Assembly: GCA_963806535.1 (NCBI GenBank)
Contig: CAWDYC010000004.1
Coordinates: forward strand, 96,001-160,000
Origin: Candidatus Bathyarchaeota archaeon
Lineage (GTDB): Archaea > Thermoproteota > Bathyarchaeia > Bathyarchaeales > Bathycorpusculaceae
Direction: 5' to 3'
DNA length: 64,000 bases
Shown in pieces: positions 16,480 to 42,822 of this stretch. The number at the start of each line of letters is the position of its first letter. Position 1 is the stretch's first letter. Below the pieces are notes generated by a model. It had not been told where the DNA came from, did not search any database, and was given only the letters and a program-made list of their open reading frames with translations. The translations under genes were made by a program, and so were the position numbers.

Positions 16480-17019
16480 AAAAAACCTAGCAGAATACCT
16501 GCCGCGTTAGCGGCAGGATGAATGCGTCTAACCCGCAGTTCTATTAGTTCTACCAAACGATAGGTCTGTCACCATTAGATAAGGAGGTGAGAGACCTGGA
16601 GAAAGCAAGATCATGTGCCTACCAAGCCAACTACCACCTTATCTGGGCCACTAAATACCGGCGCAAGGTACTTTTGGGCTCAGTTGAGGTTAGATTGGAG
16701 GAAGTACTTAAAACGATTGCTACTAATCACGGCTTTCAACTGCTAGCTGCTAAAGTTCATCATGGCGATCATATTCATGTGTTTGTTTCTGCTCGTCCAA
16801 AGCTTTGTATACCTGAGATGGTGCGTGTTTTGAAGTGTAATTCTTCTAAACTGCTGTTTGAGGAGTTTCCTGAAATTAGGTTGCAGCTTTGGGGTGGGCA
16901 TTTGTGGTCTGAGGGTTATGCTGTAAGGACTGCAGGCGTTGTTACTAGTGCGAAAATAGAAGAATATATCAACAAAAATTAGATGTGGATGCTCGCCTCG
17001 GAAGAGGCGAGTACTTCAC
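16480..17019 (+). mobile_element. IS200/IS605-family element, tnpA-only (~540 bp)
   Basis: Left hairpin CCTGCCGC-GTTA-GCGGCAGG (16498-16517) preceded by GAAT and upstream TTAT; right hairpin CTCGCCTC-GGAA-GAGGCGAG (16992-17011) flanked by GGAT and TCAC; exact ends inferred. Confidence 0.85.
16587..16982 (+). CDS. tnpA: IS200-family Y1 (HUH) transposase
   Basis: YHLIWATKYRR, DHIH (HUH), LWSEGY, IEEYI catalytic Tyr. Confidence 0.95.
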   Translation: MRDLEKARSCAYQANYHLIWATKYRRKVLLGSVEVRLEEVLKTIATNHGFQLLAAKVHHGDHIHVFVSARPKLCIPEMVRVLKCNSSKLLFEEFPEIRLQLWGGHLWSEGYAVRTAGVVTSAKIEEYINKN

Positions 17020-17248
17020 TTTTTAAGTTGCTTTTTTGTAACAGATTTTAGTTTCTTTGCAGGTTGAGTCAAAAAAAGATCAAGGCAAATTGTGAGGAAG
17101 CAAAAGCCAACAACAGGATAATTCTGTTTTTGCAGCAAATTTATGGAACTGTTTTTTCTAACCAAAAGGATTGACCGAGTCAGTATTTGAGATTCATAAT
17201 GGATTTATTGCGAGTTTCAACAACAGTGTTTAAATTGGAGCCTTAGCT

Positions 17249-40366: not shown

Positions 40367-40852
40367 TCATCGCTTTTTATTTGGATTAAGATCAATATTT
40401 TCAAAATTCATTTGGGGCATACCAGCCCAGACGTTGACAACTATCTTTTCTATTCCAAACCTTTTTCTAACAGCATTTATTTTTTGATTCAAATTATTAA
40501 TGTCTTCCGCATATATAACTGCGCAAAAATCGTATTCGCCTACGCAAGTTGAAGGTTCAATCAAATGAGTATGTTCTTTAAAGAATTCAATAAGCTCTTC
40601 TGGATTTGAATCTGTTTCCATACCAATTGTTGCGACTATGTGAAATCCCAGATTGTCTAGTGAAGGAAAAAGTGTTGCTCCTGTAATGACACCAAGGTCT
40701 TCTAAATGTTTAATTCGATTTAGCACAGCAACTGAAGATATATTACACGTTTTAGCGATATTTTTTAAGCTGGTGCGTGCGTCTTGGATAAGTGAGAATA
40801 GAATTTTTCTGTCCGTTTCATCAATTTCGACAGTCGTTTCTTTTTGCCTCAG
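40367..40852 (-). CDS. Lrp/AsnC family regulator (start uncertain)
   Basis: EIDETDRKILFSLIQDARTSLKNIAKTCNISSVAVLNRIKHL upstream and in frame with ORF 40367-40726; GEYD. Confidence 0.88.
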   Translation of the reverse strand: MRQKETTVEIDETDRKILFSLIQDARTSLKNIAKTCNISSVAVLNRIKHLEDLGVITGATLFPSLDNLGFHIVATIGMETDSNPEELIEFFKEHTHLIEPSTCVGEYDFCAVIYAEDINNLNQKINAVRKRFGIEKIVVNVWAGMPQMNFENIDLNPNKKR

Positions 40853-41038
40853 TCAATTAATGATTTACAATAACATAAACGCTTCTAAACGAGAAACTGT
40901 TTCTGCAAAAAGTTTTCAATTTTGCTATTAAATTAGCTGAAATAATGTTATTAGTTAATTATAATTGCTGAGAAATGGCTAGTTACTAAACATTTATATC
41001 AATTCAGGTTTTTGCTGTTGAGATATTGGAAAAAGGTG

Positions 41039-41145
41039 GAGAGGCTGAGAGGGCTCTGGTGATCATGGGTCAATTTGGTTTTGCTCATGAAAGATTTGCA
41101 TTTTCTTATCTTCCTTAGGTTTGTCCAGAGCCTCAGCAAACTTTC
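41039..41145 (+). ncRNA. Candidate sRNA, stem-loop element 1
   Basis: GCTGA-GAG-GGCTCTGG / CCAGAGCC-TCAGC-AAA; TTTATAT box at 40993; G-U pairs favour + strand. Confidence 0.6.
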
Positions 41146-41392
41146 TAAAAGGATAAAGCCAAGGCCAATAAATTTTTGTTAATAGCGCGTGTGACTGTTA
41201 CGTGTTTAAGATTTTGAATTAATCTTCAATGATATGCATAATTATCTAATAAATGCATTTTAATTAAGCAATAAGTGTATTAACATTAATAATGATTCTT
41301 AGAGAAAGGTTGAATGCAAAGATTTTATAACTTACTGGCTTATACTTCTTGACTAAGGCAAGTGAGCTTAGCACTTGTCAGAGAGAGATGTG

Positions 41393-41502
41393 AGGGGCTG
41401 AGCAGGCTTTGGTTAAAATCATTAAATCGCGGATGTTTCGGGAAATTCGGCTCTCTTATCCCTAAGTTCTTCCTTCAATTGTCCAAAGCCTCAGCAAACC
41501 CT
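41393..41502 (+). ncRNA. Candidate sRNA, stem-loop element 2 (paralog of element 1)
   Basis: GCTGA-GCA-GGCTTTGG / CCAAAGCC-TCAGC-AAA with compensatory change; TTTTATAA box at 41323. Confidence 0.6.
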
Positions 41503-41624
41503 GAACAATAAGAGACTTTCAAAAAATTTTATCAGAGACATTTAGAATGTGAAATCTGGTGAAATTCTAGTATAAATCGGAAAATTGTTTATTTTCACTA
41601 AAGGAACATAAGACTTTTAAGTGA

Positions 41625-41680
41625 AAGTAGTGCTTGCAGTTTCCTCTTATTATTTCTTCCTTAGGCTGCACGCTTTACTT
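41625..41680 (+). ncRNA. Candidate sRNA, stem-loop element 3
   Basis: AAGTAG..TGCAGT / GCTGCA..TTACTT enclosing CTCTTAT-TATT-TCTTCCTTAG. Confidence 0.45.
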
Positions 41681-42069
41681 CCCCATATTAATTCAATTTC
41701 AATTTTGTGATTTTCACTCCGGAAACTTTTATTTTTGTCCCTATAAGACTGATATCCCTAATTCTTGCAAGGTTTTATTACCAAGTTAGTTACAATTAGA
41801 TTTTTTGTTGGACGAGATCATCAAACTTCTTGCCCGATATAAACCTAAGGAAGAAAAAGAAAAATGAAAATGTTAAGAGAAAAGATATTAGCTTAGCTGT
41901 TGCGGCAATTCTGCTCTTCTATCTACGGCTATTTCGATTGGATGAATTCTGAATCAGATTGACCTAAGTTAGTAGATACGAAAATGATTGTCCTTTAAAA
42001 GGATTTGAATAAATGATAAGAACTCTTAAAAAAACACAAGAACGTTAGAGTTAATTGAAGAAAATTAAT

Positions 42070-42163
42070 GTTAAGCGGATTTAGCCAAGTGCTAAACAAC
42101 AGGCAAAGTGTAAAACTCAAGAGGGGCACACTTCACCTCAGATAGCAGCCGAACCCGCTTAAG
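42070..42163 (-). ncRNA. Long imperfect hairpin, candidate structured RNA
   Basis: TTAAGCGG/CCGCTTAA outer stem; 12-bp inner stem fully paired with G-U only on the minus strand. Confidence 0.5.
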
Positions 42164-42393
42164 CAATCACTGGCTCTTAGCTTTTTTCGTTGTTAAAGAG
42201 ACTACGATTTAAGAGAATATAAAACAATGTTGTCTCAAATTGAACCAACAACTCTATTCCTTGACCTCGCCAAAAGAGGATTGAAAAAGATTTATGCGGG
42301 CTGTAGTGAGAGGCGTAATTGAGTTTTAGTCCGGTTATTTTACACATTTTGTTTGCGCAAAATAATTAAACAGTTTTGCACTATTAGAAATTC

Positions 42394-42822
42394 ATGACCA
42401 ACAACAAATTTACCCCTGAACTTGTTGCGCCTTGCGGAATGAATTGTGCCATTTGCAGAGCTTACGTCTCTTATACACATGGGGTACCGCGGGTAAGAGG
42501 GAAAATAACATATTGCGCCGGCTGCGTTCCCAGAGCCAAAAACTGCTACATCAAACGAGGCTGTAAAAAACTTTCCAAACACCAATTCCAATCCTGCAGC
42601 GAATGCGACACTATGCCCTGTGAAAAACTTGCTCATCTCGACAAACGTTACCGCGAACGCTATGACATGAGCATGGTAGAAAACCTAAAACTGCTGAAAG
42701 CCAAGGGCATGGCTGAATTCCTTAAGAGTCAAACACAAAAGTACACTTGCCCAAACTGCGAGGATGTAATTTGTGTGCATGATGCAAAATGCTTAGCATG
42801 TGGCTACAAAAGAAAAGCCTAA
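42394..42822 (+). CDS. DUF3795 Cys-rich protein
   Basis: APCGMNCAIC, CAGC, CSECDTMPCEKL, CPNC. Confidence 0.85.
   Translation: MTNNKFTPELVAPCGMNCAICRAYVSYTHGVPRVRGKITYCAGCVPRAKNCYIKRGCKKLSKHQFQSCSECDTMPCEKLAHLDKRYRERYDMSMVENLKLLKAKGMAEFLKSQTQKYTCPNCEDVICVHDAKCLACGYKRKA

Follow-up and report, generated by a model that had tools for sequence, protein, structure and literature searches.

The stretch of DNA analysed here (the window) comprises 64,000 nucleotides of a Candidatus Bathyarchaeota archaeon (contig CAWDYC010000004.1, positions 96,001 to 160,000), whose genome, referred to below as G000, is 2.9 Mb long, is split into 12 contigs and is 91.75% complete. Between a gene of the Lrp/AsnC type (40367-40852, minus strand) and a DUF3795 gene (42394-42822, plus strand), the window contains ~1.5 kb without a long open reading frame (ORF). 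A preliminary description of this gap, made without database searches, had located three inverted repeats in it, and all three are present. Judged by sequence and model matches, the first two (copy 1, 41038-41144, and copy 2, 41391-41502; strand unassigned in both cases) are copies of a multi-copy hairpin repeat family that has no match in Rfam. In the reading that we tentatively favour, both are strays of a 3′ module that is specific to one gene family in Bathy-6-type Bathyarchaeia and would act as an RNA made from the strand of the adjacent gene and complementary to the leaders of that family (anti-leader RNA). The core idea of the preliminary description, a multi-copy anti-leader element for a family of secreted proteins, thus fits the sequences that we have compared.

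A hairpin repeat family behind PQQ-propeller genes

A BLAST search with copy 1 against G000 found its 3′ half about a dozen times, and a fuzzy word search together with nhmmer found ~20 copies. Eighteen full-length copies were aligned (alignment A1) and used to build a covariance model (CM), R1, with a 17-bp closing stem. At E-values up to 1, R1 retrieved 21 places in G000, namely the 18 seed copies and 3 partial ones. Copies 1 and 2 score 83.9 and 78.1 bits, respectively; both are among the 18 seed sequences, and these scores are therefore not independent. Independent support for the family is provided by ~300 R1 matches in other genomes.

The spread of the family was surveyed in 60 relatives, of which 36 belong to the same genus (g1), 2 to genus g16 of another family and 22 to 19 further genera. 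At E-values up to 0.01, matches were found in 28 of the 36 g1 genomes (1-26 each) and in both g16 genomes (16 each; 18 in one of them, G060, on a more sensitive re-scan), while a single marginal match (E 0.008) was obtained in one of the 22 genomes from further genera. Within one genus, species have between 0 and 26 copies. A pattern scan of contigs yielded, among the matches listed (80 loci), 33 copies confirmed by the CM in 28 loci, and many chance hits that were bacterial; these 28 loci are, again among the matches listed, all titled Bathyarchaeota, Bathyarchaeia or “Crenarchaeota archaeon”. One of 57 pattern matches in viral contigs was true (locus L228, IMGVR_UViG_3300033977_000275, positions 1-75; 43.6 bits, cut by the locus end). 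The L228 contig may derive from a provirus, or it may belong to Bathyarchaeia and be misfiled.

The element is a hairpin of ~100-115 nt, whose arms form two helices plus a short outer one and contain two 3-nt bulges, both conserved. In copy 1, the closing stem has ~17 bp, is interrupted by two such bulges and encloses a leader-like segment. The stems shared by copies 1 and 2, and the double change from C-G to T-A that had been noticed between them, are confirmed by the alignment. In an alignment of 29 copies, each being the best of its genome, 92.4% of the cells pair, and 8 of the 17 pairs are changed on both sides (27 cells), which was matched by 0 of 500 shuffles; in controls with slid partners, the paired fraction is 34-52%. 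The result was similar for a second alignment, of 33 copies (92.6% of cells, 7 of 17 pairs, 0 of 500 shuffles). Both alignments were fitted to the R1 model, which biases them toward the structure. As far as such alignments indicate, the closing stem is kept by compensatory changes. The 5-bp helix beside the outer bulge, however, never covaries in either set, and the arms are near-identical in g1 and g16 despite the divergence of the adjacent proteins (E 2.7e-50 for G052 and 6.8e-54 for G060, both across genera, vs. 0 for the closest genes of the same genus). Therefore, the arms are conserved as sequence, beyond pairing.

The R1 model is oriented along the window minus strand, and the adjacent gene is convergent to it. 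Along the gene strand, the gene and its stop codon are followed by ~25 nt, the T-run, a ~25-nt spacer and the hairpin, with constant orientation; at canonical loci, the element begins beyond the T-run, 37-75 nt past the stop codon. This location behind the stop codon of a gene of one and the same family was found for 13 of the 19 copies in the window's own genome, for 23 of the 29 best copies of other genomes (2 more lie at 300-430 nt, 1 locus is cut and 3 have no gene), and for 14 of the 16 copies of the g16 genome G052, where the distance is 37-55 nt. The product of the adjacent gene has 700-930 aa, with a C-terminal membrane anchor followed by a basic tail. Pfam searches identified PQQ_2, a BamB-like propeller, in it, as well as an Ig-like domain match below threshold. 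The main text of PMC11697101 describes an expanded family of Sec-secreted PQQ-domain proteins, with ~24 copies per Bathy-6 genome, for which an action on lignin or humics was proposed; the element-linked genes evidently are this family, as that text presents it.

The gene family (E up to 1e-10) is present in all 36 g1 and both g16 genomes and absent from the 22 genomes that represent other genera of the order. The element is therefore found only where the family occurs, the one marginal match (E 0.008) excepted. Three regions of G000 (C4:41700-52000, C4:428500-446200 and C7:149100-156100) hold clusters of PQQ-propeller genes, gene fragments and elements, tandem and truncated ones included, and resemble hot spots at which the family duplicates and decays.

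The leader-like interior and its predicted pairing

The starts of 17 family genes of G000 were curated as an ATG followed by a signal peptide. These starts share a leader in which the Shine-Dalgarno sequence lies unusually far upstream and is followed by a purine-only spacer, the ATG and A-rich codons. Of 499 other genes whose start is reliable, 7 have the same pattern. Read in the sense opposite to the gene, the element shows the leader pattern over the first 30-35 nt of its interior, including a few bases before the Shine-Dalgarno word. The preliminary description had proposed that the plus-strand interior is antisense to a leader common to a family of secreted proteins, and the 17 curated starts bear this out. 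In G052, 13 gene leaders and 16 element interiors have another form, with a different Shine-Dalgarno variant, a shorter spacing and the same minor variants; the interior therefore follows the leader between genera. A hidden Markov model (HMM) profile of the leader plus the N-terminal codons finds family starts and no elements (best element E 9.2), and hence the likeness between interior and leader is limited to ~30 nt. A protein-coding reading of the interior was rejected, as its frames differ between copies through single-base indels. A further interior word, centred on CTATCAC and located ~10-20 nt after the ATG, recurs in g1 and g16 (for instance in L024, L029, L033, L034, G000 C5:65251-65361 and the G052 copies).

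For duplexes predicted between 18 gene-strand interiors and the leaders of the 17 family genes, the median energy is -15.2 kcal/mol vs. -11.8 kcal/mol with 490 other genes (Mann-Whitney U test, p 5e-7); in the control with reversed loops, p was 0.14. An anti-leader RNA would most likely be read from the gene strand, i.e., the plus strand of the window, either by read-through of the T-run, which would give a long 3′ untranslated region (UTR), or from a start just upstream of the hairpin. The long hairpin would present the pyrimidine-rich anti-leader, which could pair with the ribosome-binding site and the start codon of the gene's own mRNA or of paralogous family mRNAs and so lower their translation. 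The ~20-25 copies of the gene family would then have one translational brake in common. The only conserved flank of the element is on the gene side, where the T-run and spacer stand at a fixed distance, and conservation ends at the hairpin on the other side; a dedicated promoter is therefore possible for the gene strand alone. One can go further and suppose that each PQQ-propeller gene carries, beyond its terminator, an antisense hairpin RNA module directed at the common leader of its own family, such that any expressed copy, by read-through or by transcription of the module itself, throttles all paralogues, in an RNA-based dosage or mutual-exclusion circuit spread by gene conversion. We consider this extension rather improbable, and we know of no self-targeting 3′ module of this kind in archaea or bacteria.

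Several results weigh against an anti-leader RNA. The predicted pairing is modestly selective, 4 of the 17 family leaders lying below the 5th percentile of other genes. The first pairing test, performed with 40 uncurated family ORFs with crude starts and superseded by that with the curated starts, gave no enrichment (p 0.25-0.99). The element is no better match to the leader of its own gene than to other family leaders (4621 of 5000 permutations were as low), and the genome-specific interior variants of G007 are not seen in G007 leaders. In 53 of 61 copies, a run of five or more T residues, likely the terminator of the gene, separates the stop codon from the element. Past the element, T-runs are about equally frequent on the two strands (27 of 61 copies on the gene strand vs. 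26 of 61 on the other strand), and an A/T-rich box in the spacer appears, by reading, to lie closer to the hairpin than a textbook archaeal promoter would. Wobble pairs do not point to a strand either: at pairs 2-16 of 80 unique copies, 49 G:U pairs were counted in the model orientation vs. 36 in the other (p 0.19).

The module is, moreover, dispensable. A tblastn search of G000 revealed 23 family groups, only 10 of which have a 3′ element; the groups without it keep the stop codon and the T-run and have no hairpin. Five g1 genomes without an R1 match all carry the family (10-41 matches), and ten loci from these five genomes show the T-run and no hairpin. Finally, the similarity of interiors does not track that of the adjacent genes (Mantel rho -0.04, with 1228 of 2000 permutations as high; 24 units of 29, each with at least 300 aa of the adjacent gene). 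The median identity between copies reaches 0.80 in each of G007 and G052 and 0.70 in G000, compared with 0.65-0.70 between genomes. The 16 G007 copies that stand behind diverged paralogues are near-uniform, as are their T-run and spacer, and the similarity ends sharply at the far end of the hairpin. We conclude that the copies are homogenised within genomes, which suits a propagating DNA repeat equally well, and a repeat acting at the level of DNA is therefore a serious rival.

According to this alternative, a palindromic intergenic module is spread or homogenised among the 3′ ends of family genes by gene conversion or by target-preferring copying, and any RNA effect is secondary. The module would then be akin to repetitive extragenic palindromic (REP) sequences, enterobacterial repetitive intergenic consensus (ERIC) sequences, Correia elements or miniature inverted-repeat transposable elements (MITEs), or to the conserved 3′ recombination anchor of variable surface-gene families, and its leader-like interior would be the relic of a gene start duplicated long ago in inverted orientation. 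Besides the homogenisation, with variants shared by nearly all 16 G007 copies, the lack of correlation with adjacent genes and the absence of a wobble bias, this is favoured by the existence of stray, tandem and truncated copies, by the range of copy numbers within one genus, by the many family genes without an element and by arms that are near-identical in two genera whose proteins have diverged. On the other hand, no target-site duplication was seen when the ends of 47 copies were placed side by side and judged by eye, and the orientation and the distance from the stop codon are constant in two genera, unlike what free insertion would give. Neither would a relic track the genus-specific form of the leader or retain the Shine-Dalgarno and ATG words amid a drifting interior. 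On balance, we regard a repeat that acts primarily as DNA as somewhat less probable than an anti-leader RNA. The two do not exclude each other, since conversion may well spread a module that also acts as RNA.

Known classes of mobile elements were compared with the repeat one by one. The MITE traits of terminal inverted repeats, small size and many dispersed copies are present; varied context and both orientations are not, the elements being found at a constant orientation and distance behind family genes. As for REP sequences or bacterial interspersed mosaic elements (BIMEs) with their REP-associated tyrosine transposase (RAYT), the element has ~105 nt vs. 20-40 nt for such palindromes, and the hairpins of the Y1_Tnp present are different. 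TnpB has one degenerate match in G000, far from any element. The window itself contains, at ~16500-17060, an IS200-like insertion sequence of ~560 bp with a tnpA ORF at ~16617-16979 (plus strand; G000 C4:112617-112979). Its 144-aa Y1 transposase is the only one of the genome and is present in 3 identical copies (C3, C4 and C8). This insertion sequence was rejected as a source of the arms, as its G+C-rich left and right subterminal hairpins are unrelated to them (other transposon families were not searched), which also speaks against a DNA-level repeat.

Two further candidates were rejected. The arms do not qualify as K-turns or C/D boxes, because the bulges are not followed, by eye, by the G-A pairs that define such motifs. 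Some copies seemed by eye to stand after tRNA-like 3′ ends, and ARAGORN called no tRNA in 6 such loci. Stretches resembling tRNA 3′ ends (T-arm plus acceptor) are seen beside elements of G000 C4 at ~2990-3050 of L009 and ~2540-2600 of L012; ARAGORN calls none there, and these could be tRNA fragments or intron-bearing genes that it missed.

The strand opposite to the gene (minus in the window) might be the working one instead. Its RNA would carry a copy of the leader and could serve as a decoy for a leader-binding repressor or for 30S subunits; alternatively, it could be the place where translation of a functional tiny ORF truly begins. A minus-strand mimic of the leader was also the alternative offered by the preliminary description. 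The interior does read as a strong ribosome-binding site plus ATG on this strand in 24 of the 29 best-per-genome copies; in five copies from five genomes, the first seven codons agree apart from 3 synonymous changes and 1 replacement, and in G052 the Shine-Dalgarno sequence lies in an asymmetric bulge and the ATG in a weak A-U helix. Each strand has one wobble hot spot: 19 G:U pairs without any A:C at the pair beside the bulge fit the window minus orientation, and 16 at another stem pair fit the other strand only. Against the opposite strand, no conserved sequence, and hence no conserved promoter, is found upstream, and such an RNA could therefore arise only by read-through from a neighbouring gene. 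The small ORFs vary in length and frame through indels, and the ATG is missing in several copies, including copy 2 of the window. Judging by these sequence features, we deem a function of the opposite strand improbable.

The window locus

Copies 1 and 2 are set apart from most of the family. Copy 1 has no PQQ-propeller gene upstream; copy 2, also a stray, lies in tandem with it in identical orientation. The interior of copy 1 carries the leader sense on the minus strand and the anti-leader on the plus strand, the latter at 41095-41122 (plus strand), where it is complementary to the leader of the PQQ-propeller family from the Shine-Dalgarno sequence to the ATG. The interior of copy 2 is more diverged, and its leader-like part lacks the ATG. 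The third inverted repeat, at 41625-41680 (strand unassigned), is a separate small hairpin: it scores 6.5 bits with R1 (E ~1) and is therefore not a member of the family, and its arms are unrelated to those of the repeat. Its loop contains the local word CCTAAGGAAGA (41655-41665, minus strand). Thus, of the three paralogous elements that had been proposed, two belong together and the third shares a loop word with them.

All three loops do hold the TCTTAT...TCTTCCTT words that had been pointed out. A TATA-like box in front of each element was also claimed; by reading, element 2 has no A/T-rich box within ~40 nt upstream. The folding energies of the three hairpins, taken alone, are unremarkable. 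Compared with 200 shuffles, the plus strand gave z-scores of -1.8 (6/200 as good) for element 1, -0.2 (77/200) for element 2 and -2.3 (5/200) for element 3; the corresponding values for the minus strand are -1.5, -1.0 and -2.7. No Rfam 15 family reached its gathering score in the whole window; in the 40700-42500 region, three Rfam matches were obtained, with E-values of 0.6-8.5, all well under the gathering scores. No tRNA was found in the window.

The perfect complementarity over 14 nt between the loop of copy 1 and positions 41841-41854 is real. The preliminary description saw in the latter the leader of a signal-peptide-like ORF and the target of the candidate RNA. When the 36-nt leader (41841-41876) was compared by BLAST with its own genome, it matched 6 family gene starts, 3 elements and 1 unidentified place, the best match being 31 nt at 97% identity to the leader of family gene G000 C7:153100-155922. 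The frame that begins at ATG 41865 stops after 10 codons, and the hydrophobic run is located in another frame. The first 8 codons resemble the N-termini of the family (MKMLREKI vs. MKILKKKI). Because of the leader matches and the stop after 8 family-like codons, the supposed target is the start of a dead gene: the leader at 41841-41876 is the dead 5′ end of a PQQ-propeller family gene. This decayed end as a whole occupies 41841-41897 (plus strand), with the leader at 41841-41864, and scores 14.5 bits with R1, via the interior only. A possible further remnant of the same gene lies at 42134-42187 (plus strand), where tblastn weakly matched the conserved N-terminal motif PNP..GVGQ of family proteins (E 0.29 and 1.1, by themselves not significant); both the order and the strand of this remnant are consistent with the fragment at 41865.

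Decayed gene starts arising from local inverted duplications had been named as an outcome that would speak against a regulatory RNA. The complementarity does come from an inverted copy of a gene start, and the target in the window is a dead fragment; at the same time, the complementarity in the window is an instance of the family-wide relation between element and leader.

The 11-mer CCTAAGGAAGA occurs three times in the window (41109-41119, minus; 41655-41665, minus; 41844-41854, plus) vs. ~1.0 expected with one mismatch allowed, and 9 of 100 shuffles reach 3. These three exact occurrences are restricted to the gap in the 2.9-Mb genome. When the word is relaxed by one letter, 8 occurrences are found in the genome, of which 4 are in elements, 1 precedes a family start, 2 are in the gap and 1 is elsewhere; a still looser form gives 161 matches and is uninformative. 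An enrichment of the exact word before the starts of a gene family, which had been anticipated, was thus not found. The confinement of CCTAAGGAAGA to the gap suggests local copying among element 1, the third hairpin and the gene fragment. Copies 1 and 2 are probably leftovers of a rearranged tandem array that has lost its gene, beside the dead 5′ end of another family gene.

The gap also bears on the possibility that the leader and its inverted copy are recombination sites, at which inversion would reverse a gene or, in tandem arrays, the promoter region of the following one, and cause phase variation of surface proteins. Positions 41637-41665 and 41844-41872 form a 29-nt inverted repeat with 79% identity around 178 nt that include the promoter-like box reported earlier; inverted repeats of 25-35 nt flank each gene, and the family is a large set of surface proteins. 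Such repeats are, however, imperfect (79-90% identity, with 11-14 nt perfect), no recombinase was linked to them, no locus in the inverted state was seen among the loci examined and the conserved arms of the hairpin would be left unexplained. We regard inversion as very unlikely. Another inverted repeat, of 29 nt and 83% identity, is formed by 41063-41091, inside element 1, and 42391-42419, at the first codons of the DUF3795 gene, and is possibly due to chance.

The Lrp/AsnC pair and the ECF-S gene beside the gap are confirmed by Pfam. According to the preliminary description, the elements would be independent small RNA (sRNA) genes on the plus strand under the control of the divergent Lrp/AsnC pair. 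What speaks for this is their adjacency in the window and, in another species of the genus (G012), locus L036 (C11:234363-237468), where Lrp-like and ECF-S-like genes also adjoin an element. Gene order at L036 is, however, unlike that of the window, and the element sits there behind a PQQ-propeller gene, as usual, which suggests an old neighbourhood that has been rearranged in the window. No Lrp neighbour is present at the other copies examined, where the element is tied to the 3′ ends of PQQ-propeller genes, and the window copies are strays. The Lrp gene that adjoins the gap and diverges from the elements (40367-40852, minus strand) encodes an intact helix-turn-helix, with no ATG, GTG or TTG between the upstream stop codon and this domain; its first canonical start, a GTG at 40726, would cut the domain. 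This suggests a rearrangement at the junction, and the gene has either an unusual start codon or a 5′ end lost by rearrangement. Lrp control of the elements is not supported, and sRNA genes governed by the Lrp/AsnC pair are the least credible of the explanations considered.

Relation to known systems

No relevant paper on repeats, hairpins, MITEs or non-coding RNA of Bathyarchaeia was found, and the words “repeat” and “hairpin” are absent from the main text of PMC11697101, its supplements aside. For archaea, sRNA162 of Methanosarcina mazei is described in PMC3510493 as masking a ribosome-binding site. Bathyarchaeia are abundant and mostly uncultured, and their regulatory RNAs and repeat elements are essentially undescribed. 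A 3′ module that carries the genes' own leader in reverse therefore offers a testable handle on the control or diversification of the family. Acting as RNA, it would represent a new layout of translational control; acting as DNA, it would be a repeat specific to one gene family, targeted or homogenised by an unusual mechanism.

Sibling sRNAs with C/U-rich loops are known to mask the ribosome-binding sites of envelope mRNAs, as do LhrC1-5 of Listeria and the hairpins of RNAIII of Staphylococcus. Like these, the element has several paralogues per genome, a hairpin with a pyrimidine-rich segment complementary to the Shine-Dalgarno sequence and start codon, and candidate targets that encode surface proteins. 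Unlike these, its copies lie directly behind the candidate targets and contain ~30 nt reversed from the targets' own leader, the host is an archaeon, and the transcript, promoter and terminator of the element are putative. With the 3′ UTR-derived or 3′ UTR-embedded regulators of bacteria, it shares a position on the coding strand, past the stop codon, and a predicted antisense pairing to a translation start; it differs in the T-run that separates stop codon and element in 53 of 61 copies and in that the predicted target is the parent gene family itself.

Integron attC sites are likewise imperfect palindromes at 3′ gene ends, in one orientation, with conserved outer parts and unpaired bases and a variable centre. 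In contrast to attC, however, the complementary core words that define attC were not seen, by eye, at the ends of the element (integrase and attI were not searched), all genes concerned are of one family and they are mostly dispersed. REP/BIME, ERIC, Correia and MITE repeats resemble the element in being imperfect palindromes of 100-115 bp with conserved ends, a variable centre and many copies, found between convergent genes and homogeneous within a genome. The element departs from them by its fixed place and orientation behind one family in two genera and by an interior that follows the leader, and neither a target-site duplication (by eye) nor a matching transposase was found for it. On the whole, by analogy, the working logic of the element appears closest to that of sibling sRNAs directed at ribosome-binding sites and of regulators borne on 3′ UTRs, whereas its anatomy and population behaviour appear closest to those of REP, ERIC, Correia or MITE-type repeats.

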